From NCBI GenBank assembly GCA_964473825.1, contig CAYYQL010000007.1:30768-94767 (forward strand): a stretch of DNA of 64,000 bases, in the 5' to 3' direction. Of the stretch, positions 14,188-55,683 are shown piece by piece; positions within the stretch are counted from its first letter, which is position 1, and each line of letters begins with the position of its first letter. Source of the DNA: an uncultured archaeon. Its GTDB lineage: Archaea; Asgardarchaeota; Thorarchaeia; Thorarchaeales; Thorarchaeaceae. Below the pieces are notes generated by a model. It ran no database searches. It was given only the letters and a program-made list of their open reading frames with translations, and was not told the DNA's origin. The translations under genes and the position numbers were made by a program.

Positions 14188-14239
14188 ACGACAGAAGAGA
14201 GCAACAGATTCTTGACCATCGTTGTGTCCGGGAACCAAG

Positions 14240-27998: not shown

Positions 27999-29004
27999 TG
28001 ACATAGTTGAGAGATGCTTCGCATCTCCTAACGAAGGGCTCTCATCCCTCTCACAGGCGGGCTTTGAAGCCTCTAGAAGGGCACTGGGAAACACGATGCG
28101 TTTCTATGTCCCGGGGATGGTACACTACGAAACCGAATACCACAGTATGTCGAATAAGCTACGATTCCCCGGTCTTTCAACTACTGGTAGGGCCTGTGCA
28201 TTGAACTGTGACCATTGCAGTGGTCAGCTTCTGATCTCGATGCATCCTACAACGAGCCCCGAAGCACTCTGGAAACATGGACTAAAGGTCTACAAACATG
28301 GTGGGTCGGGTATTTTGGTTAGTGGAGGATCTACACATCTGGGAAACACCCCGTTACTCCCCTTCATCCCCGTTCTGAAACGTATCAAGCAGGACTTGGG
28401 TCTGCATATTGTGGTACATACTGGCCTCGTGCTACCAGAGATTGCCGAAGCCTTAGGGGAGGTCGGAATAGATGGTGCAATGCTTGACATCATAGGATCA
28501 GACGACACGCTTCGGGAGGTATACCACCTCGATATGTCCACCGATGTTTTTGACGAATCTATGAGCCTACTGGAAGAGAACAACATCCCATTCATGCCTC
28601 ATGTAATTGCTGGACTTCACTACGGCAGACTCGAGGGGGAGATTCGTGCAATCAGAATGATTGCAAAACACAATCCCGAAGTAGTCGTGGTTGTTGCATT
28701 CATGCCGCTGGATAACACTCCGATGGAACACGTTGCCCCATCAACACCCGAAGACATCACAAGGGTCATACTCGCTGCCCGCCTTGCCATGCCTCGAATT
28801 CCACTTACCCTCGGTTGTGCACGACCACTAGGAAATCATCGGAGAACAACAGACCGGCTGGCTATCGACTCGGGCGTAAACGGAATTGCGTATCCAACCC
28901 CAGAAACGCACGAATATGCGGTAGAAAAAGGACTAGATGTCATCTATGAAGACGAATGCTGTTCCTTGATTGGGCGAGCATTCCACTTGGAGACTAACAG
29001 ATGA
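27964..29004 (+). CDS. Radical SAM protein. By context probably the LipS2-like lipoyl synthase component.
   Basis: CxxxCxxC motif CALNCDHC. Overlaps the upstream gene by 35 nt and the downstream lplA by 4 nt, so these are likely co-translated. Confidence 0.6.
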   Translation: MTWMASIFMTNDDIVERCFASPNEGLSSLSQAGFEASRRALGNTMRFYVPGMVHYETEYHSMSNKLRFPGLSTTGRACALNCDHCSGQLLISMHPTTSPEALWKHGLKVYKHGGSGILVSGGSTHLGNTPLLPFIPVLKRIKQDLGLHIVVHTGLVLPEIAEALGEVGIDGAMLDIIGSDDTLREVYHLDMSTDVFDESMSLLEENNIPFMPHVIAGLHYGRLEGEIRAIRMIAKHNPEVVVVVAFMPLDNTPMEHVAPSTPEDITRVILAARLAMPRIPLTLGCARPLGNHRRTTDRLAIDSGVNGIAYPTPETHEYAVEKGLDVIYEDECCSLIGRAFHLETNR

Positions 29005-30599
29005 ATGACTGGCGACTACTAGACACGGGTGTCCTTACTGGCGCCGAGAATATGGCGCTAGATGACGTAATGCTCGAGTGTCGTTCCGAGAAGGAAACCC
29101 CAAACACAATAAGATTCCTCCAATTCAACCCCTCTGCCGTTCTTGTTGGCTACCATCAATCAGTGGAACAGGAGGTTCGCACCATATTCTGCCAAGAGAA
29201 AGGGATTGACATCAATCGCAGAATAACTGGAGGTGGTACCATCCTCTTCACGCCTTCATGCCTCGGATGGGAAGTTTTTGCAGACAAGTCCACTCCCCGG
29301 ATTCAGGATTTGAGAAAGGATCTCGATCGACTGGCAGGCATTGTCTGCAAGGGTACCATAGCAGGCCTGAAGGAGCTTGGTATTGATGCGGAGTTTAGAC
29401 CCAAGAATGATATTGAGGTCAAGGGCCGCAAGATTTCTGGCACAGGAGGTACGCAACGAGGAGATTCGTTCATGTATCAGGGAACCCTCCTCGTTGATTT
29501 TGACGTTGAACTCATGCTTAGGGCCCTTCGAATACCTGTTGAAAAGCTGAAAGACAAGGAGATTGAAAGCGTCAAGGAGCGCGTCACATGTCTGAAATGG
29601 GAGATGGGTCATGTACCGCCAATGGATGAGATAAAATCTGCTTTGTCAGCAGGCTTTGAAGAAGTGCTAGATATGTCCCTTGAGCCGCATGGATTGTATC
29701 CGTGCGAAGAAACGCTGTATCAGGAGCGTCAGCGCTACTACCAATCGGATGAATGGGTGTATCTGGTCCGTCGGCCTGCTGAAACTGGGGGACATGTCAA
29801 TGCCATGCGGAAGACCCCAGGTGGCCTCGTGAGGGTGTCCGCCAGTATTGATGTTCTTGGAGGATTCATTGTGAGTTGTTTCATCACAGGAGATTTCCAG
29901 GCCTTTCCGCAACGCGCCATTATGGATTTGGAGGCCAGACTCAAGAACGTGTCCACTGACGAGGAAACTATCCGCAATATCATCCTCTCGTTCTTTGAAG
30001 ATTCTGGAGCAAACATTGTTGGAGTCGAGCCGGAGGATATTGTCCAGCTGATCCTTGAAAGCGTGAAGAAAACTGCATTCACGAAGTACGGAGTAACTCT
30101 TGATCAGACAAACTATCTCATGCCGGTCAATTTTATGCCTGACGAGCTAGAGGATCAGATCTTCGACTATGTCCTCTTGCCCTATTGTGCCAAACGCGTG
30201 GGTTGTGAACACCGCTGGACCGAGGGCTGTGACACTTGTGGTGCCTGCACGATCAGCCCTGTCTACGAACTAATTCAGGAGCTGGGTGTTGCCGTTCGGA
30301 CAATACAAAGCTACGAGGATCTTATCGAAACCATTGATGAGTTCAAGGAGAAGGGAGCCAGAGGATACATCGGTTCTTGTTGCGACGCCTTTCGAAGCAA
30401 GCATTACTACGATTTCGTTGAAACGGGTGTGCCTGCTTTACTCCTCGACGTGGAGGACTCTACATGCTACGATCTAGGGAAGGAACAGGACGCATATGCT
30501 GGGAAGTTCGAAGGGCAGACTACATTGATGATCGAGCTAGTCAGCCATATGATCAGAGAGATGTGGAAAAGAGGAATTCTCCGCGCAGAGGTGAAGTAG
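29001..30599 (+). CDS. lplA: Lipoate-protein ligase A (full N- and C-domains) fused to a roughly 160-aa C-terminal cysteine-rich domain.
   Basis: LplA motifs RRITGGGTI and KGRKISGTGG (lipoyl-AMP-binding Lys). The C-terminus is CAKRVGCEHRWTEGCDTCGAC...GSCCDAF, absent from canonical LplA, which is about 330 aa. Confidence 0.75.
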   Translation: MNDWRLLDTGVLTGAENMALDDVMLECRSEKETPNTIRFLQFNPSAVLVGYHQSVEQEVRTIFCQEKGIDINRRITGGGTILFTPSCLGWEVFADKSTPRIQDLRKDLDRLAGIVCKGTIAGLKELGIDAEFRPKNDIEVKGRKISGTGGTQRGDSFMYQGTLLVDFDVELMLRALRIPVEKLKDKEIESVKERVTCLKWEMGHVPPMDEIKSALSAGFEEVLDMSLEPHGLYPCEETLYQERQRYYQSDEWVYLVRRPAETGGHVNAMRKTPGGLVRVSASIDVLGGFIVSCFITGDFQAFPQRAIMDLEARLKNVSTDEETIRNIILSFFEDSGANIVGVEPEDIVQLILESVKKTAFTKYGVTLDQTNYLMPVNFMPDELEDQIFDYVLLPYCAKRVGCEHRWTEGCDTCGACTISPVYELIQELGVAVRTIQSYEDLIETIDEFKEKGARGYIGSCCDAFRSKHYYDFVETGVPALLLDVEDSTCYDLGKEQDAYAGKFEGQTTLMIELVSHMIREMWKRGILRAEVK

Positions 30600-30723
30600 C
30601 CTGCAACACAATGATGTCATTATAGTTGGAGGAGGACCCGCCGGGGCGGCAAGTGCTATCCTCTGCGCAAGAGAGGGGCTTGATGTCTGTCTGCTCGAAA
30701 AGAAAGGCAAGAACAGGCACAAG

Positions 30724-31656
30724 GTGTGCGGAGGAGTCCTGCCAGCTGTTGCTCCAAGTGCAATAGAGGATATCTTGGATGTGTCACTGCCAAATCATGT
30801 TATGGCAAACCCGTCACAACTCGGGCTGTACTACATACCTCCAAGCGGCCGGGAAAATGGCGTTGTTATTGAGGGATACAAGATATACAATGTCAACCGT
30901 GACAGGTTCGACCAGTGGCTTCGTGATACGGCTGAAAAGAACGGCGTCAGCATCCAGTACAAGACAGAGTGCATTGGGTTCGAGTATGATAGGGAATTCT
31001 CCGTCCAAGTTGAGGGTCCTAGTGGACGGTGTCTGTATTCCTCGGAGTATCTCATTGGAGCTGACGGTGTTAGGTCTTACACGCGCCGTAAACTCATGCC
31101 AAATGAAGATACCCCTGTTATGCTAGTCGCTCAGGAGGAACTGAATGCAGAGGGCGATTTTGGAGAGTACTTCTATGGATTCTTTCGCGAGGACATCTCC
31201 AAAGCCTACGCGTATGTCATCCCGAAGTCCAATAGACTGTTCCTGGGTCTGGGTACAACCCCGCACACGAAGCCCAATCTCCATCAACTGATGATTCGTT
31301 TCAAGAAATGGCTAGGAACCGAGTTTGCATTCAATGAACTGAGTCTTGTTAGACGGGAAACATGGGCAATACCGTTCGGGTATTTCCATCTTGGTGTCGG
31401 TAACGCTCTTCTTGTTGGAGACGCTGCAGGGCTGTGCAACCCGCTATCGGGTGAAGGTATCAGACCCGCCATCGAAAGCGCAGAGGCTGCGGCGGCGGCA
31501 ATAACTACGACGGGTGATTCGTCCCTCGTTAACCGCTATGCACGCAACGTGGAGGGGCTAGTATTCATGCTGAAGGACCTCAACCGCTTTGTGCGAAGTA
31601 TGGATAATGCAGCCATGGAGGAGTTCATTCACCAAGAGGCAAAGAGACAACTCTAA
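30724..31656 (+). CDS. Geranylgeranyl-reductase-family FAD-dependent oxidoreductase. The start is unresolved. The FAD-binding N-terminus is encoded in frame upstream of the first canonical start.
   Basis: In frame upstream, from about 30601, reads NDVIIVGGGPAGAASAILCAREGLDVCLLEKKG, a GxGxxG motif. There is no ATG/GTG/TTG in that stretch. An ATGATG sits in the +1 frame at 30611-30616. Confidence 0.65.
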   Translation: MCGGVLPAVAPSAIEDILDVSLPNHVMANPSQLGLYYIPPSGRENGVVIEGYKIYNVNRDRFDQWLRDTAEKNGVSIQYKTECIGFEYDREFSVQVEGPSGRCLYSSEYLIGADGVRSYTRRKLMPNEDTPVMLVAQEELNAEGDFGEYFYGFFREDISKAYAYVIPKSNRLFLGLGTTPHTKPNLHQLMIRFKKWLGTEFAFNELSLVRRETWAIPFGYFHLGVGNALLVGDAAGLCNPLSGEGIRPAIESAEAAAAAITTTGDSSLVNRYARNVEGLVFMLKDLNRFVRSMDNAAMEEFIHQEAKRQL

Positions 31657-31693
31657 CATCACAATTAAGTGTCAACGAGTATAGACTCGTGCC

Positions 31694-32791
31694 ATGCCTA
31701 TCGAGACTTGGCGACTATTGGACTTGGGACCCATTGATCCCCTCGAAACCCAGACAATATATGACATGGTGGCACAGGCCATCACCGAGGATGAAGCAGA
31801 GAACACGCTCATCATATGCTGGCCAAGTGACCCTCTCGTATCGCTGGGATACTTCCAAGAAGCCGAAAAGGACATTGACCTAGAGTACTGTCGAGAGAAC
31901 GATGTTCTAGTTGTGCGAAGAGTCATCGGTGGGGGTGGTGTCTACCTTGATGAGGGTCAGCTCTTCTACCAGATAATCGGCCGAGTTGACAGTCCAACCA
32001 CACCCAAGAGCATAGATGCTTACTATCGCAAGTTTCTAGATGCGCCTGTGCAGACCTATCGTAACCTAGGAATTGATGCAGAGTTCAGACCAGTAAATGA
32101 TATTCAAGTGAGTGGGAAGAAGATCTCGGGAAATGGAGCAGGAGACGTAGGAGATGCCAGAATACTCACCGGAAATCTGATCTTTGATTTTGATTTTGAT
32201 TCAATGGTTCACGTACTCAGAGTTCCAAGTGAGAAGTTTCGAGATAAGATATTCAAGAGTCTCAAAGAGCGAATGACCACCATAGAGGGAGAGCTGGGTG
32301 CACTACCCGACCGTAACACCGTGAAAGAAGACCTTCTTAGATTATATGAGAAGACCCTCGATATTGACCTTGAGCGGGGAGACCTCTCGTCCTGGGAGAG
32401 AAACAAGATGAAGGAGCTCCGTGACAAGTATCTCTCGAGGGACTGGCTATTCTGGAGGAAGGGACGGAAATTCGATGTTGCTCATCAGGTGAAAATATCA
32501 GCCACGGCATCTGTTGGCACTGCGAACTTCAAGGCTGAAGGAGGGCTCATCAGGGTGACCGCAGAGGTGGTGGAAGGAACGATAGAGGAGATTGTCGTGA
32601 GTGGTGACTTTTTCATGATTCCCTCTCTCGGAATCGAACTTGTTGAAGGGGCACTTACAGGCGTCAGGGCAGAGAAAGAGGAGATTCTGCGTCGAATCGA
32701 GCAGCTTTATTCGGACAAGGGGCTCCAGTCACCGGGCGTTAGACCCGAGGATATTGCCGAAGCCGTGAATCTGGCCGTACAGGAGACTTAG
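31694..32791 (+). CDS. lplA: Lipoate-protein ligase A family protein (second paralog).
   Basis: RRVIGGGGVYLD and SGKKISGNGAG motifs. 365 aa, canonical length. Confidence 0.8.
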   Translation: MPIETWRLLDLGPIDPLETQTIYDMVAQAITEDEAENTLIICWPSDPLVSLGYFQEAEKDIDLEYCRENDVLVVRRVIGGGGVYLDEGQLFYQIIGRVDSPTTPKSIDAYYRKFLDAPVQTYRNLGIDAEFRPVNDIQVSGKKISGNGAGDVGDARILTGNLIFDFDFDSMVHVLRVPSEKFRDKIFKSLKERMTTIEGELGALPDRNTVKEDLLRLYEKTLDIDLERGDLSSWERNKMKELRDKYLSRDWLFWRKGRKFDVAHQVKISATASVGTANFKAEGGLIRVTAEVVEGTIEEIVVSGDFFMIPSLGIELVEGALTGVRAEKEEILRRIEQLYSDKGLQSPGVRPEDIAEAVNLAVQET

Positions 32792-34002: not shown

Positions 34003-35562
34003 TCAGTCTTCTTCAAGTTCCTTCATCCGCTGTTCAACGATATGAAGAATATCTTCTTTCATCTTCTTGCCCTCAGAGATGATACGTTCGACTTCTTCTC
34101 CAGTCTTTTTCACGAAGTCTTTGTCGCGGATGTTTCCCAGATTGATGCGGACATTGAGAGCCGCCCCCTCTATTGCTGCCATGAGGGCATGTGCTGCGAC
34201 TCCAGCATCAGTGATTGCGTTGATGTTTCCCTTGTCCGCGGCGACCTTGGTATGCTCTAGGGCGTTGAAAGAGTGACGCATTGTCTCGAGCGGTACCTCG
34301 GCAGCATGTATCGTCGCGGATTCAACTGCTTTCTCCTTTGCCTCCTTCTCCTTCGCTGTGTCTTCTGACATCTTGTATGCGGTCATGACTCGGTCAAAGG
34401 CTTCCGAGTCTTTCTCAACAAGGCCCATGAGAACCCCTCGATCATTCTCGCAGGCATGACGATGCTCTAGCATCTCCTCCCGAATTGCCGCGAATTTCCG
34501 GCCAGAAAGTGACAGTCCAGTGACCATGCAGACAAGTGCACCACCAAGAGAACCCATTGCTGCAGCGACACTGCCGCCTCCAGGTGTTGCTCTGGCTCGA
34601 CGAACTTGATCTCCGAACTCGATGAGTGACATCTCGCTGAAGCTCTTCTCAGTTGGATCCTGCGCACCTCCCAAGTAGTAGAGGTCGAGAATCATCTCCT
34701 GTTCGAGTTTCTCCGGCTGTACGTAGTATTTGAATGCATCAAGTATGGCGAACAAAGGAATCATTCCCACTATCTCGGTCTCTACAACTGTTGCTCCGAA
34801 ACGTCGTGCCTCGTTGCGGACCACCTCAAGCACTTGATGAATCTTCGTTCGTTTAGGATGAATCAGGTTAAGGGAGACCTGGGTCATGCCTTTCTCAGGG
34901 AGGTCAAGACCTATTCCTTGAACGTATACAAAACCACCAGTTGTCGCTCGTACAGCATTGGCACATGTCTTTGCAACTTCAACATCTGTTGTGTTCAGAT
35001 TACAGTTGAAAGCTATGAGGAAATGTCGAGCGCCTGTGGCCGTAGCCCCTGCTGTCGGATGGATCTTCTTCGGGCCATAGTCAGGGTCTTTCTCAGCTTC
35101 TACTCCAATCATTTCACTGAGACCTTCAAATTCGCCCTGTCGAATATTGGGAAGCTCTCTGCGGTCAACCCGAGTGGCAGACTCTGCATAAAGATAGACA
35201 GGCACATCATGCTTTGAGGAGTACTCCTCTGCAAACTGCTTGGACAGCTCGATGCATTCGCCTATTGTAGTACCATGGAGAGGTATAAACGGAACGACAT
35301 CGACTGCACCCATCCGAGGATGGGCGCCCTGATGCTTAGTCAAGTCAATATTCTCAACAGCAACATCAGCAGCCTTCAGTGCTGCATCTTTGACTCTCTG
35401 GGGTTCACCGATGAATGTGAAGACAGACCGGTTGTGATCCGGGTCATACTCGACGTCCAGAAGCCTAACACCTTCAATGCTCTTTATGGCATCTGCAAGC
35501 GCGTCAATGACCTCTTTGCGTCGCCCTTCTGAGAAATTGGGTACGCATTCAACGATTTTCAT
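34003..35562 (-). CDS. Bifunctional glutamate formiminotransferase-cyclodeaminase (FTCD-like).
   Basis: N-terminal MKIVECVPNFSEGR (formiminotransferase domain). C-terminal ATPGGGSVAAAMGSLGGALVCMVTGLS (cyclodeaminase domain). 519 aa. Confidence 0.8.
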   Translation of the reverse strand: MKIVECVPNFSEGRRKEVIDALADAIKSIEGVRLLDVEYDPDHNRSVFTFIGEPQRVKDAALKAADVAVENIDLTKHQGAHPRMGAVDVVPFIPLHGTTIGECIELSKQFAEEYSSKHDVPVYLYAESATRVDRRELPNIRQGEFEGLSEMIGVEAEKDPDYGPKKIHPTAGATATGARHFLIAFNCNLNTTDVEVAKTCANAVRATTGGFVYVQGIGLDLPEKGMTQVSLNLIHPKRTKIHQVLEVVRNEARRFGATVVETEIVGMIPLFAILDAFKYYVQPEKLEQEMILDLYYLGGAQDPTEKSFSEMSLIEFGDQVRRARATPGGGSVAAAMGSLGGALVCMVTGLSLSGRKFAAIREEMLEHRHACENDRGVLMGLVEKDSEAFDRVMTAYKMSEDTAKEKEAKEKAVESATIHAAEVPLETMRHSFNALEHTKVAADKGNINAITDAGVAAHALMAAIEGAALNVRINLGNIRDKDFVKKTGEEVERIISEGKKMKEDILHIVEQRMKELEED

Positions 35563-35728
35563 TCTTTGTCACTGCGGCCGCACTTCACAACCATCTAGAA
35601 AAGCGTTTGGGCCTGACATTGGGGAGACTGCCTACCCCTCAGTCAGAGTATATACTCGAGAATCTGCAAGGTGCCTTACAGAAACGAGGCGGCAGCTAAC
35701 TGCGAGCTCTCACATCTCGTGTACGAAA

Positions 35729-36658
35729 CTAGCTGACGTACGATCCGTAATCGATAGCAACTGTCGTGAGGACGTTTGTCTGAGCCTGCTGGAAGGAGTA
35801 AGCAGCTAGAACGTTCTTGAGAAGCATCGCAATGGTCATGGGGCCAACTCCCCCTGGCACTGGAGTTATGTAGGATGCGATCTCTTTGACTTCGTCAAAG
35901 TCCACATCGCCATTGGGGGTAGCAACATCGATGACTATGGCGCCCTTCTTCACCATGTCCGCGGTAATGAAGTAGGGATCATCATCTCCTTGACGTCGAC
36001 CCACTGCGGTAACGAGTATGTCAGCCTGTTTCGTCATGGAAGGCAAGTCGCGGGTATGTGAATGGCAAACGGTGACCGTGGTGTTCCGATTCAGGAGTAG
36101 GAAGACTAGGGGTTTACCCACGATAGTTGATCTGTTGACAATGACAGCGTACATTCCATCCAAGTCAACACCCAGTAAATCCAGCATCGTCACAATTCCT
36201 TGTGGTGTGGCGGAGCAGAGCATCTCACCACCATAGAAGAGACGATAGATGTTCCGTGGAGAGAAGCCGTCAACATCCTTACTCGGGTCGATAGCGCTGA
36301 TGATGGTCTCTTCATCAATGTGCCTTGGCAACGGAAGCTGAACCAGAATACCGTGAACACTCACATCTCGATTAAGCCTCTCAATCAGTCCCATCAGATC
36401 TTCTTCGCTCGTGTCACTCGGTAACGAATGGCCATCAGAGATTATGCCCGCTTTCTTGCACGCACGATGTTTCATCCGAACATACATCTTGGAACCCGGG
36501 TCTTCTCCAACTATCACAGTTGTCAGCTTCGGGGCGATTCCGTGTAGCTCTGTCAGGCGCTCTACTTCAGATGCAATCTGGGAGCGAATCCTCTTGCTCA
36601 GTTTCTTTCCATCGATGACATTACCTTCGATGAAATCTTCAGGCTTGATTCGTTTCAC
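35729..36658 (-). CDS. folD: Bifunctional 5,10-methylene-THF dehydrogenase / 5,10-methenyl-THF cyclohydrolase.
   Basis: Typical FolD layout and motifs: KMYVRMKHRACKKAGI, GRRQGDDDPYFITADMVKKGAIVIDVA and PGGVGPMTIAMLL. Confidence 0.85.
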   Translation of the reverse strand: MKRIKPEDFIEGNVIDGKKLSKRIRSQIASEVERLTELHGIAPKLTTVIVGEDPGSKMYVRMKHRACKKAGIISDGHSLPSDTSEEDLMGLIERLNRDVSVHGILVQLPLPRHIDEETIISAIDPSKDVDGFSPRNIYRLFYGGEMLCSATPQGIVTMLDLLGVDLDGMYAVIVNRSTIVGKPLVFLLLNRNTTVTVCHSHTRDLPSMTKQADILVTAVGRRQGDDDPYFITADMVKKGAIVIDVATPNGDVDFDEVKEIASYITPVPGGVGPMTIAMLLKNVLAAYSFQQAQTNVLTTVAIDYGSYVS

Positions 36659-36670
36659 TGTACAATCCTC

Positions 36671-38365
36671 CTAGAAGACTCCGTAGATATCACCATCATC
36701 ATCTAGACCCATTCCAACGGCAGCAGGTTCCTTGGGTAAGCCGGGCATCAGCATAACATCGCCCATGTACACAATCACGAATCCAGCACCAGCACTGACG
36801 TCAACACCTCGTACAAAGACTTCAAAGCCGGTCGGGCGTCCTTTAAGTCGCGGATTGTCAGAGATACTGAACTGCGTCTTGGCAACACAGATGGGCAACT
36901 CGCCGTAGCCCCGCCGCTCCAATGAGCGTATCGGACCGCGTGCATTGTCCGAGAAGATCACCCCATCTGCCCCATACACCTTCTTGGATAGCTTCTGGAT
37001 CTTCGTCTTCAAGTCATCTTTGAGATCATATGTAGGGATCACCTTGGCATCTGCATCGACCGCATCCAATACGGCGGAGGCAAAATCCTCTCCACCCTTG
37101 CTTCCTTCTGCAAATACATCAGAGACCTCCATCGACCAACCTTGCTCATCACAGAATGAACGGAGAGTATCTATCTCCGAATCCGTATCATCCGGAAACC
37201 TGTTCAGTGCAATCACTGCAGGCAATCCGAAGTCGTGGATATTCTCGACATGTTTCTGTAGATTCGGAAAGCCTTTCGCGAGTTCACCGTCGCCGTGCTC
37301 TTTCAGTGCACGGATTGATGTGACAATGACTACAGCATTGACATCGAATTCTCCTGCCCGAGTGACTATGTTAAGGAACTTCTCTGCACCAAGGTCAGCA
37401 CCAAAACCTGCCTCAATGACCACATAGTCAAAGAGCCTTAATGCGATATCAGTAGCTATGACCGAGTTCGTCCCATGTGCGATGTTGGCAAAGGGTCCTG
37501 TGTGAATGATGGCGGGTGTTCCCTCACTGGTCTGTACAAGATTCGGTTTCAGAGCATCTTTGAGAAGCACACTCATCGCCCCCTCAGCCTTGAGGTCACC
37601 CGCATGCACCTCTTTCAAGTTCATATCCCGTGAGAGAAGAATCCGTGAAAGGCGCTTCTGCAAGTCATCGTAGTCTTTAGCCAGAGCAAGGATTGCCATG
37701 ATCTCGGAAGCAGCCGTGATGACGAATCTGTCTTCTCGTGGGAATCCGTTGGACTTGCCACCTAGGCCCACCATGACCTCTCTGAGGGCACGGTCGTTCA
37801 TGTCTATGGCGCGGGGCCAATAGACTCTTCTGACATCAATGCCAAGCTCGTTGTCTTGGTGAACATGATTATCCATCATCGCTGAAAGGAGATTGTGTGC
37901 TGCAGTAATTGCTGGGAAATCCGCGGTGAACATCAGATTGATGCGATCAGAAGGCAGTACCTTAGACTTGCCACCACCGGTTGCTCCACCCTTGATGCCG
38001 AATACAGGACCAAGAGAGGGTTCTCGAAGAGTCACAACAGCGTTATGACCCATTGCATTGAGAGCCATTGAAAGCCCAATCGAGGTGGTCGTCTTCCCCT
38101 CTCCAGCCGGGGTAGGCGTTGTCGCCGTGACAAGTATCAATTTGCCCTTTCTCTTACCGAGCTTTCTCCGTATATCTAAGTCGATCTTCGCCATGTATTT
38201 TCCATACGGTTCAAGGAATTCTTCTGAGATGCCAGCCTTTTCAGCCACTTCGGTTATGTGAATCATCATTCTACACCAATCTGATAAACAGGGGGGCTTT
38301 TGACTCATAGTGTCAAGAAGCTTTCCCTTTATGTTGTTGAATCCTATCTCTGAACGCCGCTCCAA
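36671..38365 (-). CDS. fhs: Formate-tetrahydrofolate ligase.
   Basis: Signature TPTPAGEGKTTTSIGL, and about 560 aa colinear with Fhs. Confidence 0.9.
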   Translation of the reverse strand: MERRSEIGFNNIKGKLLDTMSQKPPCLSDWCRMMIHITEVAEKAGISEEFLEPYGKYMAKIDLDIRRKLGKRKGKLILVTATTPTPAGEGKTTTSIGLSMALNAMGHNAVVTLREPSLGPVFGIKGGATGGGKSKVLPSDRINLMFTADFPAITAAHNLLSAMMDNHVHQDNELGIDVRRVYWPRAIDMNDRALREVMVGLGGKSNGFPREDRFVITAASEIMAILALAKDYDDLQKRLSRILLSRDMNLKEVHAGDLKAEGAMSVLLKDALKPNLVQTSEGTPAIIHTGPFANIAHGTNSVIATDIALRLFDYVVIEAGFGADLGAEKFLNIVTRAGEFDVNAVVIVTSIRALKEHGDGELAKGFPNLQKHVENIHDFGLPAVIALNRFPDDTDSEIDTLRSFCDEQGWSMEVSDVFAEGSKGGEDFASAVLDAVDADAKVIPTYDLKDDLKTKIQKLSKKVYGADGVIFSDNARGPIRSLERRGYGELPICVAKTQFSISDNPRLKGRPTGFEVFVRGVDVSAGAGFVIVYMGDVMLMPGLPKEPAAVGMGLDDDGDIYGVF

Positions 38366-38410
38366 AAGAACATAAGCCCTATTGTACAGACAAAGAACGG
38401 GCTGATTGAA

Positions 38411-39712
38411 ATGGAGAAGATTCCCCTCGAAGCACTACCTGATGCATTACCGGACGGCATAGACATAGAGAATTATGTGATATGCACCTACTATGTGGGT
38501 CTTCCCCCCTTTATGGATGCAAGACAAGTTGCACATGCTGCGGCAGTTGAGCAGAGCACAGGAACTTGGACAATGGTGCCAGGCGAGACCTTGGAAGTGC
38601 GGAAGCGTCATGTGGCCAAAGTGGTTGGCATCTATGAGGTGCCGCAATACGAATACAGCACCCCCAAAGATATCGAGCGGCGGCAGTACATCATACAAGT
38701 GGCATATCCATGGGAAAACTTCGGCAGACAGATTCCAATGCTACTGAGTACGGTTATTGGGAACATATCGCTTGGAGGGCGCATCAAGTGTTTAGACATG
38801 CGCTTTCCAAAGGAATGGTTGAAGGGCTTCAAAGGACCGAAGTTTGGAATCAAGGGCCTTCGGAAGCTTCTTGGTGTTAAGAAACGTCCACTCCTGAACA
38901 ATATGATCAAACCGTGTGTCTATACATCAGCCAAGATGGGAGCAGATTTGGCATACCAAGCTGCTGTTGGGGGAGCTGACATTATCAAGGATGATGAGCT
39001 CCTTGCCAACCCAGAGTTCAATACGCTTGAAGAGAGGATACCCCTGTTCATGGAGGCGCTGGATAAAGCAGATGCAGAGAAAGGAGAGAAGACACTATTC
39101 ACGGTGAATATCACAGACAGCGTCCCCAAACTGTTTGAGAACGCCGATAGAGCAATCGAGCTGGGTGCCAATGCACTCATGATAAACTTCCTTGCTGTGG
39201 GGTATTCTGCCTTCAGACATGCGTGTGAAATGAGTGAGGTTCCAGTTCTTGCACACATGGATATTGCCGGGGCTCTATCGTACTCACCCATAACCGGCAT
39301 CGGAACAAACATCGTGATCGGAAAGCTCCCCAGGATTTGTGGGTCAGACATAACCGTCTTCCCTGCCCCCTACGGGAAAGCCCCTCTACTGAAGGAACGC
39401 TTTCTAGCCATGGCACATCACATGGTCATGCCTCTCAGAAACATCAACCCCAGTATGCCCATGCCCAGCGGAGGAATATCTCAAGGCATGGTGGAGGAGG
39501 CGGTGGATGATCTGGGACCAGACATCGTGATTGGGTCGGGTGGAGCGATACACGCCCATCCAGATGGCCCAACAGCTGGAGCAAAGGCATTTCGGCAGGC
39601 CATTGAGGCCAAGATGAAAGGGGTCCACGTCAGTGTCTATGCCAAGGAACACGAGGAGCTGAAGAAAGCAATGGACTCATGGGGCTCGGGTCGGACTGGA
39701 TTCGACCTGTAA
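38411..39712 (+). CDS. RuBisCO large-subunit superfamily protein. Either a form III carboxylase or, more likely, a RuBisCO-like protein (RLP).
   Basis: Carbamylation/metal motif GGADIIKDDE is present, as are the GKL, SGG and GSGG-x5-HPDG loops. By eye-alignment, the KPK motif is KPC, the H-R pair is H-M, and the H327-equivalent looks substituted (spinach numbering). Confidence 0.7.
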   Translation: MEKIPLEALPDALPDGIDIENYVICTYYVGLPPFMDARQVAHAAAVEQSTGTWTMVPGETLEVRKRHVAKVVGIYEVPQYEYSTPKDIERRQYIIQVAYPWENFGRQIPMLLSTVIGNISLGGRIKCLDMRFPKEWLKGFKGPKFGIKGLRKLLGVKKRPLLNNMIKPCVYTSAKMGADLAYQAAVGGADIIKDDELLANPEFNTLEERIPLFMEALDKADAEKGEKTLFTVNITDSVPKLFENADRAIELGANALMINFLAVGYSAFRHACEMSEVPVLAHMDIAGALSYSPITGIGTNIVIGKLPRICGSDITVFPAPYGKAPLLKERFLAMAHHMVMPLRNINPSMPMPSGGISQGMVEEAVDDLGPDIVIGSGGAIHAHPDGPTAGAKAFRQAIEAKMKGVHVSVYAKEHEELKKAMDSWGSGRTGFDL

Positions 39713-39745
39713 TGCTGAGAGACTGGTAGTAGAGAAACATGAAGG

Positions 39746-41329
39746 TCAATGAGCCTCTTCATTCATCTTCTTCCAGAGGGCCTTATTCCTCTTGTAGTAC
39801 TTCTTCATGATCTCAGAGAGCCGCTCATAGGTCTCAAAGGTGTCAGCGTTGGGCTCGAAGACATGATCAACCTTTATCTTGTTTCCAACCTGATTGAAAT
39901 CCTTGAGTTCGCCTAGACCCACAAATGCAACCATCGACACTCCTATGCTTCCTGCTGCCTGTGGATGCCGCATCCTGTGTATTGGCTTCTGAAGGACGTC
40001 AGCAAATATCTGGGGCCAGAGATCAGACTTAGCGCATCCACCAATCATGTTGATCTTCGGTACCTTCCCCAGCATCTTTCGTTTCTCGACCCCTTCCATC
40101 ATCCAGCGCGTATGAAGAGCAACACCCTCTAGTACGGAACGCACCATATGCTTCTTCGAATGAGCCAGTGATAGATTGAAGTAACCGCCGCGTACATTGT
40201 GGTCATCAAGTGGGCTGCGCTCTCCAAACATCCAAGGTGCAAAGAGTAGATTATCAGAACCCGGCTCAGACTCAGCGGCAATCTTGTCTATGACTGAAAA
40301 TGGGTTTCGTTCTCCAGTCTCGCAGGATAAACACTCCTCGGCTGCAAGGGGACGTATGTTTTCGCAAAGATCACAGTGCCATTCTTCACGTAGATGCTTC
40401 AGGCATGCGCCCGCGGACTCTTGTTCAGCCACCATGAAATACTTGCCCGGAATGGCACTGCGTATTGAACCTGTGAAGGAGCTGATGTCTAGCTTCCTGT
40501 CTTCAACATGAGCCCCTAGCCAAGCACTTGACCCTGCGTAGAGATGGCATTCCTTTTCACGCACAGCCCCCGAACCAACTCCCGCAGCAGTCATATCTCC
40601 GCTCCCGTTCACGACCATGGTCTCGGTAGTGAGCCCTAGCTCTTTTGCAGCGTCAGATGTCAATGACCCCACAACTTCTGTGGAAGGTGCCAGCCGGGGG
40701 AGCTTTTCAATGTCAAGGTTCATCCATCCCAGAATGGTTTCGGACCATTCATTGTTTCCCTTGCGTGTGTTCATGAACCACGTGAGGTTCCCGCAGTCCC
40801 AGGAGGTCACATACTCGCCCGTGGTACGAAATATCAAGTAGTCCTTACAATCCAAGAATTTACAGGTCTTCTCATACACCTCCGGGCGCTCCTCCATGAC
40901 CCAGAGAATCTTCCCGATGATGTCCTTTCCTGAGGGCAGTCCACCCGTGATTCGTAACATCCTGAGCATTCTGATTGGATTCGAGATGATTTTCTTATTC
41001 TGCCGAGCCGCCCTTGAATCCATCCAGGTCATGCAATTCATCAGTGGTCTTCCTACTCTATTGACAGGGATTGTACCCATCATTTGAGTCGAGAATGTGA
41101 GGGCAATCACATCTCTGGGAGATAGTTTGGACTTCGATATCACTTTACGTGATGTTTCCCGGATAGCATTCCACCAGTGCTGCTCCGGGTCTTGTTCAGC
41201 CCAGTTGACTTGGGGATAGAGGACAGGGTAGCTCTTTTCTGCAGAGGCCAAAATCTCACCATCGATACTGACAAGAGATGCCTTGTTTCCGCCGGTTCCT
41301 ACATCGTGTGCTAGGACATACCCCGTCAT
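39746..41329 (-). CDS. FGGY-family carbohydrate kinase (xylulokinase/glycerol-kinase-like).
   Basis: N-terminal YVLAHDVGTGGNKASLV, and the two-domain FGGY length of 527 aa. Confidence 0.75.
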   Translation of the reverse strand: MTGYVLAHDVGTGGNKASLVSIDGEILASAEKSYPVLYPQVNWAEQDPEQHWWNAIRETSRKVISKSKLSPRDVIALTFSTQMMGTIPVNRVGRPLMNCMTWMDSRAARQNKKIISNPIRMLRMLRITGGLPSGKDIIGKILWVMEERPEVYEKTCKFLDCKDYLIFRTTGEYVTSWDCGNLTWFMNTRKGNNEWSETILGWMNLDIEKLPRLAPSTEVVGSLTSDAAKELGLTTETMVVNGSGDMTAAGVGSGAVREKECHLYAGSSAWLGAHVEDRKLDISSFTGSIRSAIPGKYFMVAEQESAGACLKHLREEWHCDLCENIRPLAAEECLSCETGERNPFSVIDKIAAESEPGSDNLLFAPWMFGERSPLDDHNVRGGYFNLSLAHSKKHMVRSVLEGVALHTRWMMEGVEKRKMLGKVPKINMIGGCAKSDLWPQIFADVLQKPIHRMRHPQAAGSIGVSMVAFVGLGELKDFNQVGNKIKVDHVFEPNADTFETYERLSEIMKKYYKRNKALWKKMNEEAH

Positions 41330-41424: not shown

Positions 41425-42640
41425 TTACAGGGCTATTCGCTCGAGATTCCCCTCATGATTAATGGATTCGATAATCAATGGAGAACCCTCTCCTGTTACA
41501 TCATCTAGTTTCAGATATTCCTGCATGAGCCCAAGGAACTCAAGAGGATTGATAGATGCCTCCGGAGGTAGAACTCCTTTACCCTCCACTTTACCTCTCT
41601 GCATGAGGAGAGCTCCAATAGCAGCTGGAATGCCGGTCCCCTCCCCCATAGACTGCCCCTCGGAAGCAAGAGAGAAGTCGAACTGGTGGGGCTTGCCCTC
41701 AACAGCACCCTTCATCGTGATCTTGAGACAACCTCGCTGTGTTCCGAAATTGGTGGCTTCCAGAATCTCGTCTCTCCGCGAGATGATATAGGCGATAGTG
41801 AATTCTCTCGGAACGACTTCCTGCCCCTTGACATTGATTGGCTCCTCCTCCACAATACCGAGCCTAACGATTTCCCTTATCAGATCGTAATACTCTGTCG
41901 GAATCACACACCCGAGATTCGTCACTCGCTGGCAATCAATGTAGTTGGGTAAGGTTATGGTCTCGGGGTGAGGATAAGGGTAGCAACGATATGTTCCAAC
42001 GCAGTGGAATTCAACATCCTCTTCAAGGGCTTGCCCACTCTCTTCGAAGTATTTCACAGTGGTAAAACCGCCATCGAGGTACATCGGAATATCAGCCAGC
42101 ATGCTGTGAATCCTGTGTGCAACAACAGCCGGACCCTCATTAGGTTCACCCCCGTGTGCATGAAGAATGTCAATTGAGTCCACCTCATCGAGCATGTGAT
42201 CTGCACAGAACTTGGCGAGAAGATTGGCAACACCAGGCGAGCTACCCATTCCTGTTAGGGCTGTGACATCAGCTTCCTTCGCTACTGTGTCCATATCCAG
42301 TAGTTTCTTTGTGGCGTCAAAGTCGTCACAGACATCAACATAGTTGACTCCAGCCTCGATAACAGCTTTGAGTACTATTGGCCCATACTTGTAAAATGGT
42401 CCACAGCAATTCAGAACCACGTCTGCATTCTTGATGGCATTCTTGATGCTCCCAGCATTCCCGGCATCAACTGCAAGAGCCGAACAACTATCAGATCCCA
42501 TCTCTGCAGCTCGTTCATGCGCCCCCTCTTCATTGATGTCAGCAATGACAATCTCATCGAAATCATCGAATGAGGCAAGTGCTCGTACAGCGATACTTCC
42601 AACAATGCCGCAACCTCCAATGACCACAACTCTTGGCATG
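41425..42640 (-). CDS. Saccharopine-dehydrogenase-family NAD(P)-binding oxidoreductase.
   Basis: Rossmann motif MPRVVVIGGCGIVGS, the probable true start. The track start at 42834 adds about 65 aa that are unlikely to be real. Confidence 0.6.
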
Positions 42641-42867: not shown

Positions 42868-43617
42868 TCAGAGAATAGATACACGGTCGCCGGGTTGAAG
42901 GTCAATTCTGTCGATAGCCCGTGCATTCCGTCGGCAGATCTCCAGAGTGCCTGCGCTACCCGTTACGATGAAGAGCTCATCGTCGGGACCTTCGCCATAC
43001 GTAGAATGGCATCTCAGGGGCATCTTCAGTTTGTCGTTCATAAGACAGACTTTGTCTTTGGCCAGAGGGGGGAGATTGGTGATTATGTTGCCAAAGCGGT
43101 CTATCCGGACCACCTGACCTTCTCGCCCATCACGATGAAACGTCAGAGGTACCTGAAGCGATTCTCTGTATTCGCCCAGCCGCTTCCCCGCAACACCCTT
43201 CTCAAGATAGGCAGCCATGCGGGCAAATACGTCGCGGCCGTGGAATGTTTTTGCATCCTCTTCCTCAACAGCAATCGTGAATATCTTTTCTACTCCATCA
43301 TTCTGAACAGTGGGATAGAGAACACCATTGTCGGGTCCAATGAAGCTGAAATTACGGGTTGTTACCAAGACAGCATCGCGTTCTGTACCAACCCCGGGAT
43401 CCACCACAACCACAAAGGTTGTTCGTCGTGGAAAGTAAGAGTAGCTCTTGAGAAGGATCCAGGCACCTTCGATTATTGATTGGGGACTCACAGAATGTGT
43501 GAGGTCAATGATACGAGCCTTGTCGCAGATAGAGTATATCATACCTTTCATCATACCTACATACTCGGACTCGCCGAAATCTGTTAACAGAACTATCATG
43601 AGAAAGCCTCTATTCAC
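42868..43617 (-). CDS. SAM hydroxide adenosyltransferase family (DUF62; fluorinase/chlorinase superfamily).
   Basis: N-terminal LLTDFGESEYVGMMKGMI, and 249 aa, typical of DUF62. Confidence 0.65.
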   Translation of the reverse strand: MNRGFLMIVLLTDFGESEYVGMMKGMIYSICDKARIIDLTHSVSPQSIIEGAWILLKSYSYFPRRTTFVVVVDPGVGTERDAVLVTTRNFSFIGPDNGVLYPTVQNDGVEKIFTIAVEEEDAKTFHGRDVFARMAAYLEKGVAGKRLGEYRESLQVPLTFHRDGREGQVVRIDRFGNIITNLPPLAKDKVCLMNDKLKMPLRCHSTYGEGPDDELFIVTGSAGTLEICRRNARAIDRIDLQPGDRVSIL

Positions 43618-43632
43618 CTATGTATAATTGCG

Positions 43633-44766
43633 TTATTCTACCTTTACCAATCGTATCTCGTTGTAGTCACTGATGACCCGTATGTAGCCTTGAAGCATTT
43701 CATCAACAGCAGAATCGCCTGTATCAACCTTTAGTGTTTCTCCTTCAATGCCCTTTAGTTTCGAAGGTGTTGACAAAACCTTGATGTGATCTCGGCCTAC
43801 ACGTTTGATTATCTCGGGACTGATCTGCTGGTTTCCTCGTCCAAACAGCATACCCTGGTGTCCGATAGGCGACACGATAATCCACGCTTTCTCGAAATCA
43901 TCCACTAACTCTAGAATCTGTGATTCATTCACATCATTATGGACCTTGCCACTGTGATAGAGGTCCACCCCAAGTGTGGTCTTCTTAATTTCAAGGAGGT
44001 CTGTTACACTCTCTACTGTCGTTCCGGGTCCCAGGATGTAGTAGCCGTCATTCTCCATACGTTCGACAATATGACGAGCTATCGCCTCCTGTGCCTCTTG
44101 TTCATTGACAGTTTCAGGACTTGCCTGCTTGGCCCCCTGAAATCTTGCAGGAACCGAGGGTCCTTGAAGATAACCATAGAGTCTAATGCTAAAGTTGTCT
44201 TCGCGGAAGGCCTCTTCGTCCGCATCCATTATCTCGAATTTCGATGGCTGCGCGGAGCCCTCAAGTACGAGGCGGACTACCTCCGCAGCATCTCTCGGGT
44301 TTATCACAAAGATGCCGCTGTACATCTTTACTCCAGATGGGACGCCCAATACGACCAGTTCATCCAGCGAGTTCTCTTTTACAGAGTCAAGGATATCACG
44401 GGCAGTACCGTCCCCACCCACAAATGCGAGCAGTCTCACTCCTGCATCATAAAGCGCCTTCACACAGACTCGTGTATCGTGGGAAGTCGTTACCTCACCA
44501 ACATCAACATCTACCACTGTGTGACCTATCCCCAAGCCATTCAGGATGCCGTCACCCATCGGTTCTGGACATGAATAGAACTCAATGTCAAATCGCTCGT
44601 CATCTAATATGCTAGATTGTAGAGCCTCAAGAAACTCCTTTGCTCTTCCCGGAGCCACGGGCTTGGCCCCTCTTCTGCGGGCCTCCTCTACAACCCCGTC
44701 AGTCCCCTTGAGACCCACTCGTCCACCCATTCCTGCAATCGGATTGATCAAGAAACCCAGTTTCAT
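43633..44766 (-). CDS. ATP-NAD kinase family protein.
   Basis: GGDGT motif LAFVGGDGTARDIL, and an N-terminal Gly-rich segment. Confidence 0.65.
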   Translation of the reverse strand: MKLGFLINPIAGMGGRVGLKGTDGVVEEARRRGAKPVAPGRAKEFLEALQSSILDDERFDIEFYSCPEPMGDGILNGLGIGHTVVDVDVGEVTTSHDTRVCVKALYDAGVRLLAFVGGDGTARDILDSVKENSLDELVVLGVPSGVKMYSGIFVINPRDAAEVVRLVLEGSAQPSKFEIMDADEEAFREDNFSIRLYGYLQGPSVPARFQGAKQASPETVNEQEAQEAIARHIVERMENDGYYILGPGTTVESVTDLLEIKKTTLGVDLYHSGKVHNDVNESQILELVDDFEKAWIIVSPIGHQGMLFGRGNQQISPEIIKRVGRDHIKVLSTPSKLKGIEGETLKVDTGDSAVDEMLQGYIRVISDYNEIRLVKVE

Positions 44767-51417: not shown

Positions 51418-51966
51418 TCAACCCGAACCGGACTCTCTGTTATGAACAAGGGTTGTTCCTAGCTGTTCGAATACATCAAGAATCCCCTCTCCGGTCTTGG
51501 CTGAAGATTCAACGTAAGGCATTCCGTGAGCGTCTGCGAACTCTCTGCCTTCAGATGGAGCAACGACCCTATCAGGAAGGTCGGTCTTATTTGCCACTAG
51601 AACTAAGGGAATCTCCTTGCCGATTGCGGTTCTAAGTTCGTCGAGCCACTCCTCGAGTACGATAAATGTTCTGCGTCGGCTAACATCGTAGACCAGCAGT
51701 CCACCACTTGAACCTCGATAATACATCGGGCGAAGAATCTGAAAGCGGCTTTGTCCCGCCACGTCCCAGATCTGCAATTTCACAGTGAGTGGATTACCAT
51801 GAATAGATGGAATCTCTATATTCTTGACTGCAAACTGACTTCCGATTGTTGTCTTGTAGTCAGTTCGAAAGAAACCATGAGAAAACCTAGTGACGATTGC
51901 AGTCTTTCCAACTGCTCCCTCACCGAGAACAACAACCTTGAACAGATAGTCATACGAGCTACTCAT
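51418..51966 (-). CDS. Ras-superfamily small GTPase (Rab/Ras-like).
   Basis: G1 GEGAVGKT, G3 WDVAGQ, G4 NKTD and G5 SAK motifs, with a C-terminal flexible tail. Confidence 0.9.
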   Translation of the reverse strand: MSSSYDYLFKVVVLGEGAVGKTAIVTRFSHGFFRTDYKTTIGSQFAVKNIEIPSIHGNPLTVKLQIWDVAGQSRFQILRPMYYRGSSGGLLVYDVSRRRTFIVLEEWLDELRTAIGKEIPLVLVANKTDLPDRVVAPSEGREFADAHGMPYVESSAKTGEGILDVFEQLGTTLVHNRESGSG

Positions 51967-54925: not shown

Positions 54926-55636
54926 TCATATCAAGCGTCGGACATGATTTCTCGGATAGAACGGGCCGGCGTGTTTCAATAGAGAACTGGAGAATGCTTC
55001 AGCCCTCTCGCAGTCCGATTGGACTCCTCTCAACCGGGTTCGTACATCGTAGAATCTCTCGTAGTAACCGTCTGCCTTGCTAGTCTGGCTCTTGTGACAG
55101 CGTAATCCCTCCAGTGCGGTATCATAGCTCTCAGTGACATTGACCATCACGTTAGGTCGTGAGAGAAGGGTGTTGACTTCCATATGGTAGATACAACTGA
55201 CTCGATGGGCTCTCTCGAACTGAGTCGCATGTGATGCCCATTCAGCTGCATCAGCAACAATCTTCGCACATGCTACATGGTTGTTATTGTAGTCCTGCTC
55301 GGAGTGGGTGATAATGATCTCCGGATGCCATTCGAGGATTGCCTCAATGATTCGCTTCTCCACACCCCTGTCAACAGCAAAGTCTTCCCGCTCTTCCGTC
55401 AGAAGATGACGGACACCAAGTATCTTGCTGGCCTCCTTCAGCTCTCTGTTTCGAGCTGGACTTCCCGTGAGGCACATCAGATCCACGTCTACTCCCTGAC
55501 TGGTATGAAACGCTATCGTCCCACCGGCACCCAAGCATTCGTCATCGGGATGCGCAGTAACAACGAGAATAGAGCCATCGTCAAAGGAATTCATGGTCAT
55601 CCCAGACCCAGTTTTACTAATCAAGCTTTGGCCCAA
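54926..55636 (-). CDS. bshB: PIG-L/LmbE-family N-acetylglucosaminyl deacetylase. By context a BshB-like deacetylase.
   Basis: Metal-binding motif VVTAHPDDECLGAGG. Divergent from the adjacent BshA-like gene. The symbol is assigned by context only. Confidence 0.6.
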   Translation of the reverse strand: MGQSLISKTGSGMTMNSFDDGSILVVTAHPDDECLGAGGTIAFHTSQGVDVDLMCLTGSPARNRELKEASKILGVRHLLTEEREDFAVDRGVEKRIIEAILEWHPEIIITHSEQDYNNNHVACAKIVADAAEWASHATQFERAHRVSCIYHMEVNTLLSRPNVMVNVTESYDTALEGLRCHKSQTSKADGYYERFYDVRTRLRGVQSDCERAEAFSSSLLKHAGPFYPRNHVRRLI

Positions 55637-55683
55637 CCATTCGTCTTAAAACCCACCGTTTGCTGTTCAGTACTGTGACCAAC

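Follow-up and report, generated by a model that had tools for sequence, protein, structure and literature searches.

To our knowledge, a reaction has been assigned to only a handful of RuBisCO-like proteins (RLPs, form IV of the RuBisCO superfamily), every time with the discovery of chemistry that was new to the superfamily. The RLP considered here is encoded in a 64,000-nucleotide stretch of DNA (the window) from an uncultured archaeon of the Thorarchaeia (assembly GCA_964473825.1, contig CAYYQL010000007.1), and its best-scoring characterised relatives are the YkrW/MtnW enolases of Bacillus and Geobacillus (PDB 2OEK, 2ZVI; 35–37% identity), whose genes have mtnA, mtnK, mtnB, mtnX and mtnD as neighbours. 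OiaX-type RLPs are 3-oxo-isoapionate-4-phosphate decarboxylases, and their gene adjoins that of the kinase producing the monophosphate substrate, a four-carbon acid-sugar kinase of the DUF1537 family. Form III RuBisCO belongs to the archaeal AMP pathway (T. kodakarensis, PDB 1GEH/3A12), and the IV-Photo/NonPhoto type is represented by the RLP of C. tepidum. The DeepYkr RLPs (R. rubrum, R. palustris RLP1) are 5-methylthioribulose-1-phosphate 1,3-isomerases, in which a ketose monophosphate is isomerised by enolisation (PMC5893883); their partners are MtnP, MtnA and a cupin. Nucleoside or methionine salvage is the role that reviews (PMC6646929, PMC7495880) give to the RuBisCO-type gene of Asgard archaea, Thorarchaeota among them, and a published tree places Thorarchaeia sequences in type IV (10.1101/385732).

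Judged by its residues and its position in a tree, the RLP of the window is a member of a distinct, archaea-wide form IV clade that is neither form III nor MtnW/YkrW. The gene of an FGGY-family carbohydrate kinase, convergent with it, and the adjoining gene of a saccharopine-dehydrogenase-like oxidoreductase (SacDH-like) are real partners of the RLP gene, and the three form a module. This trio points to an undescribed three-enzyme sugar-phosphate pathway. The assignment to type IV was already known. What seems not to have been described before is the signature of the clade, the misfit of the name MtnW and the three-gene module, and literature searches for an RLP linked with an FGGY kinase or a saccharopine dehydrogenase found nothing relevant.

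Active site and family placement of the RLP

The protein matches the Pfam families RuBisCO_large (PF00016; 165 bits, E 3e-48) and RuBisCO_large_N (PF02788; 49.5 bits), both above the cutoff. Its residues were mapped on a MAFFT alignment of 120 superfamily members in the numbering of spinach RbcL, the reference being identical to PDB 8RUC/1IR1 at 475/475 residues and its numbering correct at all landmark residues. E60, T65, W66, N123, K175, H294 and K334 are retained (as E47, T52, W53, N118, K167, H282 and K323), together with the carbamylation and metal motif KDDE (K193-D194-D195-E196, with the equivalents of K201, D203 and E204) and the glycine loops (S379/G380/G381 as S353/G354/G355, G403/G404 as G377/G378). 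The substitutions are K177 to C169, R295 to M283, H298 to A286 and H327 to V316. The original prediction, made by eye, had called Cys for K177, Met for R295 and a residue other than His at H327, with KDDE intact, and the alignment bears out all of this. However, it had ascribed the glycine loops to the distal phosphate (P2), which is wrong. From the structures of spinach RuBisCO with carboxyarabinitol bisphosphate we take the conserved glycines (G381, G403, G404) to bind, with T65, the proximal phosphate (P1), and R295, H298 and H327 presumably form the P2 site. The P1 site would then be retained and the P2 site replaced by an uncharged pocket (M295, A298, V327), a combination that suggests a monophosphate substrate. 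Cys, invariant at position 177, may serve as an acid/base.

A chance origin of this pattern is excluded, because homologues number in the hundreds and the substituted residues are invariant in the clade. The homologues are 58–97% identical to the query, the closest public loci (97% and 94%) lying in metagenome-assembled genomes of Thorarchaeota. Across 42 aligned clade members, down to 57% identity, neither the substituted residues nor KDDE vary, C169, M283, D284 and K323 included, and the resulting signature (E60, N123, K175, C177, KDDE, H294, M295, V327, K334, S379) is likewise invariant in the orthologues of Hadarchaeales and Bathyarchaeia. Over the clade as a whole, the retained metal/carbamate site and the lost P2 site hold down to 55–59% identity. 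The named members of the clade come from Thor-, Loki-, Hel-, Jord-, Hod- and Hermodarchaeota, Bathyarchaeota, Hadarchaeales, Theionarchaea and Methanofastidiosa. The nearest outgroups, at 41–48% identity and with N123, K175, C177 and K334, include Anaerofustis, Desulfosporosinus and Eubacteriaceae.

Phylogenetic placement, proposed as a check with the original prediction, was done by neighbour joining on 99 sequences with 300 bootstraps, after partial and chimeric representatives had been removed; an earlier tree that included them gave no support. In the cleaned tree the sequences with the query signature form a separate archaeal clade (bootstrap 0.96), and the YkrW clade is monophyletic by itself (0.99) and excludes the query. 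The deeper nodes are without resolution, and no sister group is assigned to the clade. The Photo representatives (P0177, matching 1TEL/1YKW/2QYG) form a group apart, and the IV-Photo/NonPhoto signature (E123, N177, F295, R334) differs from that of the query (N123, C177, M295, K334). The AlphaFold2 model of the RLP (predicted local distance difference test score, pLDDT, 89.8) aligns over its full length with solved RLPs and form III at template-modelling (TM) scores of 0.82–0.92, and a fold search does not discriminate between RLP clades, as Photo, YkrW and form III all reach a TM score of ~0.85. Public names for the clade conflict with each other (“ribulose 1,5-bisphosphate carboxylase” at NCBI, “2,3-diketo-5-methylthiopentyl-1-phosphate enolase” at JGI), and the residue analysis contradicts both.

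A bona fide form III carboxylase in AMP or nucleoside salvage is implied by several of the NCBI record names and assumed in reviews of Asgard metabolism. The protein has the full RuBisCO fold, comes like the T. kodakarensis enzyme from an archaeal host, and keeps many catalytic residues of form III (E60, N123, K175, K201, D203, E204, H294, K334, S379) at ~30% identity. However, the full catalytic set is not conserved: with K177C, R295M, H298A and H327V the protein has lost the site for the distal phosphate, which binding of ribulose 1,5-bisphosphate requires. Moreover, the rubisco_III model (TIGR03326) scores 259.6 bits against a cutoff of 497.45, and representatives with the full catalytic signature are placed elsewhere in the tree. 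A Pfam search of all larger open reading frames (ORFs) of the window found no AMP phosphorylase, IF-2B-type (ribose-1,5-bisphosphate) isomerase, MtnK, class-II aldolase, ARD or PRK, and the earlier statement that the first two are missing nearby stands for these 64 kb. The form III carboxylase is rejected on residues, score and gene context, which leave it next to no probability, and the original preference for form IV is upheld.

The name used by JGI would make the protein an MtnW-type enolase of methionine salvage. MtnW provides the top NCBIfam models (NF007095 / TIGR03332) and the best PDB relatives (Geobacillus and Bacillus, 276 bits), and YkrW/MtnW shares with the query the fold, KDDE, K175, H294, the P1 glycine loops, the loss of the P2 site and the loop-6 motif FPxPYG, which is common to the query clade and the YkrW-type enolases and marks the two as related. 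Nevertheless, both scores are below the equivalog cutoffs (348.4 vs 409 and 307.7 vs 513.6 bits). At position 123 the query has Asn118, whereas all 16 YkrW-type sequences, three of them named MtnW, have Lys; Imker and colleagues are said to have shown in 2007 that the base of the enolase is the Lys at this position, Lys98 in G. kaustophilus MtnW. Further differences are E60 against Gly, K334 against Ser and C177 against Met/Val. The hosts are anaerobes, and canonical methionine salvage needs O2 at MtnD. Nor are there mtn genes nearby, unlike in the canonical context of the Priestia locus, the partners being instead FGGY and SacDH-like. When the Priestia mtn genes and a DUF1537 kinase were used as queries on the flanks of 89 loci (1.4 Mb), no homologue of MtnA, MtnK, MtnX, MtnD, an MtnP-type protein or the DUF1537 kinase was found; the probing returned only generic class-I aminotransferases and a single class-II aldolase, in a contig of a sister clade (L083). 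The residue at position 123, the cutoffs, the tree and the gene context lead to rejection of the MtnW enolase, a reading that is largely refuted and very improbable.

Partners of the RLP gene across archaea

For the neighbourhood analysis, all ORFs within 8 kb of the RLP gene were clustered for 80 loci and the window, with context examined at contig level. The FGGY kinase gene that the original prediction placed convergently downstream is there (Table 1). The SacDH-like gene, which it did not mention, is the third conserved member of the module; it is co-directional with the kinase gene, from which a 95-bp spacer separates it. In Thorarchaeota the arrangement is syntenic, with FTCD-FolD-FTHFS divergent upstream and FGGY-SacDH-SAM_HAT-NADK downstream on the opposite strand, and the three genes occur together in the window and in 21–28 of 46 loci. 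The trio is found again in Hadarchaeales, on two contigs, as SacDH→RLP→FGGY with gaps of 20–39 and 10 bp, and in Bathyarchaeia, where the search began from a kinase homologue, as SacDH→FGGY→RLP with a 4-bp overlap and a 52-bp gap. Across the three phyla the orthologues are 55–60% (RLP), 47–53% (SacDH, the window protein compared with those of the two operon types) and 41–44% (FGGY) identical. At least five separate lineages have an FGGY kinase of the same xylulokinase-like subfamily next to an RLP of this clade, in varied orders and orientations that include tight operons; orthologues or paralogues stand next to the RLP gene in Thor, Loki, Jord, Hadarchaeales, Bathyarchaeia and the sister-clade contig L083. 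The earlier proposal that RLP and FGGY kinase serve an uncharacterised sugar-phosphate or oxo-acid-phosphate pathway gains support from this recurrence. At least one partner lies within 6 kb in 44 of 87 loci, and flanks are truncated in 28 of the other 43.

The kinase and SacDH-like genes might also be neighbours by inherited gene order only, without functional coupling to the RLP. The synteny of the whole Thorarchaeota region, unrelated genes included, fits this explanation, as do the many loci of Lokiarchaeota, Theionarchaea and Methanofastidiosa in which the RLP gene has no kinase or SacDH neighbour. Coupling is favoured, because the trio recurs in three phyla in different gene orders (three in all) and with operon-like spacing. 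In addition, a reciprocal search from the kinase recovers the RLP, and two kinase paralogues alternate in one slot. Mere inheritance of gene order is accordingly held to be a poor candidate, although not as poor as the MtnW enolase.

The kinase has both FGGY domains (Pfam FGGY_N 157.5 bits, FGGY_C 101.7 bits) and the catalytic motifs DxGTxxxK (DVGTGGNK at 9–16) and GSGD at 242, and its exact sequence is present in the public collection. On the XylB model (TIGR01312) it scores 273.5, below the cutoff of 380.25. All five RLP-linked kinase groups behave in the same way, with scores of 262–322, XylB first and FGGY gluconokinase second, and none reaches the XylB cutoff. The best solved relative is an FGGY gluconate kinase. 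RLP-linked kinases are 34–46% identical to each other, compared with 23–26% to bona fide GlpK. In Thorarchaeota (loci L001–L044) the single slot between RLP and SacDH is filled by one of two FGGY paralogues that are 39% identical: type A, as in the window, or type B, shared with Lokiarchaeota. The pattern is independent of RLP or SacDH relationships, RLP identity being 0.81 both within and between the two sets, which indicates that one kinase was replaced by the other in situ, or that a duplicated pair underwent reciprocal loss, with selection maintaining a kinase at this place. The kinase is the likely producer of the phosphorylated substrate of the RLP. One locus of Lokiarchaeota (L046) carries two type-B copies in tandem.

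The SacDH-like protein matches Sacchrp_dh_NADP (70.1 bits) and Sacchrp_dh_C (43.3 bits) in Pfam and has the GxGxxG motif as GCGIVG; no NCBIfam equivalog was found for it, and its best PDB match scores only 75 bits. Elsewhere SacDH is replaced by a class-III aminotransferase. An enzyme of this class stands with the RLP in Loki, Hel, Jord, three Thor genomes and the contig L083, whose RLP is 48% identical and whose order is RLP→FGGY, class-II aldolase, Rrf2, aminotransferase. FGGY is mostly present beside RLP and aminotransferase as well, but not in Hel or the three Thor loci. The RLP-linked aminotransferases are of two subfamilies, ArgD/GABA-AT-like and HemL-like, each of which recurs across lineages; as the two are only 23–35% identical, treatment as a single HemL-like group was rejected. 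Both SacDH-like enzymes and class-III aminotransferases interconvert amines with carbonyls, which suggests an amine-bearing substrate or an aldehyde product that is aminated.

Other genes occur near the RLP in some lineages. A cluster of the 2-hydroxyacyl-CoA dehydratase / benzoyl-CoA reductase-like type (HGD-D) consists of two subunits and BcrAD-type activase genes, two in Hadarchaeales and one found in Jordarchaeia (L086:3329-7687, L088:2357-6733, L047:6375-9538, L050:14529-17728). In Hadarchaeales it is directly beside the SacDH-RLP-FGGY operon and divergent from it, whereas the Jordarchaeia have it on the strand of FGGY and the aminotransferase, after these two; the cluster may be part of the RLP pathway. 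Directly downstream of the RLP gene, on the same strand, 27 Thor loci encode a 332-aa protein without a Pfam or NCBIfam match (e.g. L006:11552-12550), often preceded by a flavin oxidoreductase of the old yellow enzyme (OYE) type and followed by a PNPOx-like protein. A protein of ~115 aa with weak HMG-CoA_red_N/CGDB matches is encoded beside the RLP gene in Theionarchaea, in Methanofastidiosa and on the contig of the sister clade (L085:10319-10675, L087:9322-9678, L083:8538-8885; 31–34% identity), and in no Asgard locus. These four kinds of neighbour (OYE-type, PNPOx-like, 332-aa and ~115-aa) were rejected as members of the module, being lineage-specific and absent from the window. In Desulfosporosinus (L084:7245-12770) an outgroup RLP (48% identity, C177, K334) is encoded between glpA and glpB/glpC, with pyruvate kinase, enolase, glpK and a MIP channel downstream, an anaerobic glycerol operon. 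Its interpretation as a parallel with a third carbonyl-generating partner was rejected, since NCBIfam identifies bona fide GlpA, GlpC and GlpK.

A possible reaction sequence and its competitors

Fold, residue pattern, clade and gene linkage are established, and on them a scheme can be built in which the chemistry, the order of the steps and the use of a monophosphate would be as follows. The SacDH-like oxidoreductase would create or remove a carbonyl or amine on a sugar-like substrate, a role that the class-III aminotransferase would take in other lineages, and the FGGY kinase would phosphorylate the substrate once. The RLP would bind this monophosphate via the proximal phosphate site (T65, W66, G381, G403, G404). 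Its carbamylated Lys201-Mg2+ centre (KDDE, H294, K175) would then abstract a proton next to the carbonyl, giving a metal-stabilised enediolate, and reprotonation would yield an isomer or tautomer able to enter central metabolism. Proton abstraction to the enediolate, the common first step of the superfamily, is proposed because the carbamate-metal site, K175, H294 and the P1 site are intact; the kinase product is taken to be the RLP substrate because the tight pairing mirrors that of OiaX with its four-carbon acid-sugar kinase. Variants of the scheme can be envisaged, in which the RLP step is preceded by unmasking of the carbonyl of an amino or secondary-amine sugar-like substrate, or amination of an aldehyde product comes after it, or the SacDH-like protein acts as a plain polyol dehydrogenase.

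The same three-function logic is found in tetritol and pentitol routes (erythritol with EryA/EryB and isomerases, threitol in M. smegmatis), in which a keto group is made, an FGGY kinase phosphorylates, and the carbonyl is shifted via an enediolate. The likeness is one of logic; the isomerases of these routes are of the TpiA, RpiB or EryC type rather than RLPs, and the dehydrogenases come from other families. The reaction type of the DeepYkr RLPs is also of the kind proposed here. That the RLP enolises or isomerises a keto-sugar monophosphate supplied by the kinase, as one step of a module with FGGY and SacDH-like proteins, has in our estimate an even chance of being right.

Several points weigh against this scheme. 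The counts in Thorarchaeota prove little alone, as the syntenic region extends to unrelated C1-folate genes. Theionarchaea and Methanofastidiosa, like many Loki loci whose flanks are complete, have no kinase beside the RLP; in Theionarchaea a kinase homologue lies elsewhere in the genome, 7 kb from a SacDH gene. The role suggested for the SacDH-like protein is drawn from its family membership, its best solved relative being remote. Finally, E60, N123 and K334 are not needed for simple enolisation, and their retention suggests that the chemistry may be other.

Retention of these residues, with K175, is the starting point for C–C chemistry of the OiaX kind, in which a phosphorylated oxo-acid sugar or a ketose monophosphate would be decarboxylated, transcarboxylated or carboxylated, the enediolate losing or gaining CO2. 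The enolase clade has G60, K123 and S334 at three of the positions, and K334 is also kept by OiaX and by the acid-sugar RLP of Azospirillum. OiaX-type proteins and the query further share K175, KDDE and H294, the direct adjacency of RLP and kinase genes matches that in the OiaX system, and gluconate kinases, the best solved relatives and second NCBIfam model of the kinase, act on an acid sugar. On the other hand, the OiaX model (NF042437) scores 198 against a cutoff of 700, and OiaX-type RLPs, at ~28% identity, keep R295 where the query clade has M295 and have G123, A177 and Q327. Furthermore, no DUF1537 kinase occurs near any clade member, FGGY taking that place, and the loop-6 FPxPYG is shared with the enolases and not with OiaX. 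C–C chemistry of this kind is unlikely on balance, but is the alternative to be taken most seriously.

A broader version would make the clade a functional intermediate between form III and the enolase-type RLPs, with carboxylation, decarboxylation or C–C cleavage of a sugar monophosphate supplied by the FGGY kinase. It is suggested because the E60-K334 pair, N123, K175 and H294, which serve CO2 addition and the carboxylated intermediate in RuBisCO, are kept and only the distal pocket is remodelled. This version is doubtful, more so than the OiaX-like one; if true, it would mean that anaerobic archaea of sediments, the closest relatives of eukaryotes among them, widely carry out a C–C reaction of the RuBisCO type on a substrate new to it.

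Salvage of by-products of S-adenosylmethionine (SAM) offers another assignment for kinase and RLP. Here FGGY would phosphorylate 5-methylthio- or 5-deoxyribulose, and the RLP would isomerise the 1-phosphate in the manner of DeepYkr, the M295/A298/V327 pocket holding the methylthio or methyl tail. The uncharged distal pocket with an intact P1 site would fit a ketose 1-phosphate with an apolar tail, and the DeepYkr function itself (PMC5893883) is a precedent. A class-II aldolase of the Ald2/MtnB/FucA family is found beside RLP-FGGY in L083, and the window has a SAM hydrolase-like gene 1.5 kb farther on. However, the flanks lack the Mtn homologues listed above, and the scheme leaves the SacDH and aminotransferase partners without a role, the DeepYkr partners being others. 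The DeepYkr-like clade, for which the group of PDB 3QFW is probably the representative, is distant as well (~375 aa, K-D-H for K-D-D-E, P295, R334; 123 bits to the query vs 276 for MtnW). SAM by-product salvage is consequently improbable, slightly more so than the functional intermediate.

Layout of the locus and wider meaning

The features of the locus are collected in Table 1. Two genes in it are over-extended at the 5' end in the mechanical ORF call. The SacDH-like ORF extends to 42834, and the lengths of orthologues (398–421 aa) point to the start given in the table (MPRVVVIGGCG). The FTHFS ORF has 564 aa, compared with 531–536 aa in orthologues, and its probable start is at ~38272 (MMIHITEV).

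Table 1. Features of the RLP locus in window coordinates
Feature	Position	Strand	Evidence
RuBisCO-like protein (RLP, form IV), 433 aa	38411..39712	+	Pfam PF00016 + PF02788, residue table, tree, AlphaFold2 model
FGGY-family carbohydrate kinase, xylulokinase-like, specificity unassigned, 527 aa	39746..41329	-	Pfam FGGY_N + FGGY_C
Saccharopine-dehydrogenase-family NAD(P) oxidoreductase (SacDH-like)	41425..42639	-	Pfam Sacchrp_dh_NADP + Sacchrp_dh_C
Convergent junction, 33 bp, RLP stop to kinase stop	39713..39745	.	Direct sequence reading
Divergent intergenic region, ~138 bp, FTHFS probable start to RLP start; presumed RLP promoter region	38273..38410	.	Direct sequence reading

Upstream of the RLP gene and divergent from it, the window carries the C1-folate block of FTCD, FolD and formate-tetrahydrofolate ligase (34003-38365, minus strand), which is syntenic in all Thor loci. 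After the SacDH-like gene, on the same strand, come a SAM hydroxide adenosyltransferase / (R)-SAM hydrolase-like gene and an NAD-kinase-like gene (42868-44766, minus strand), and the synteny of this pair extends to many Thor loci. At 14222-15274 the window has a gene of the adenosine-deaminase family. An unusual block related to lipoylation lies at 26853-32791: two radical-SAM genes come first, then genes for a 532-aa protein in which an LplA catalytic domain is joined to DUF116, for an FAD-binding protein and for another ligase of the LplA type. The Ras-family small GTPase encoded at 51418-51966 (minus strand; 162 bits) belongs to the eukaryote-like proteins that are a signature of Asgard archaea. 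At 54926-58580 there are adjacent genes for a PIG-L deacetylase (minus strand), a GT4 glycosyltransferase (plus strand) and a BshC-like Rossmann protein (plus strand; PF10079, 62 bits). This trio resembles the bshB/bshA/bshC cluster for a bacillithiol-type low-molecular-weight thiol, which would be unexpected for an Asgard archaeon.

Members of the RLP clade are frequent in Asgard archaea, Bathyarchaeia and Hadarchaeales and in sediment lineages related to them. Metabolic reconstructions that cite the gene for CO2 incorporation or methionine salvage need revision, because the evidence from residues and gene context contradicts both the carboxylase and the enolase readings. The compact operon of oxidoreductase, kinase and RLP offers a directly testable route to the substrate, and the mixed active site, in which E60, N123 and K334 are as in RuBisCO and loop 6 is as in the enolases, is relevant to the divergence of RLPs from the carboxylases.

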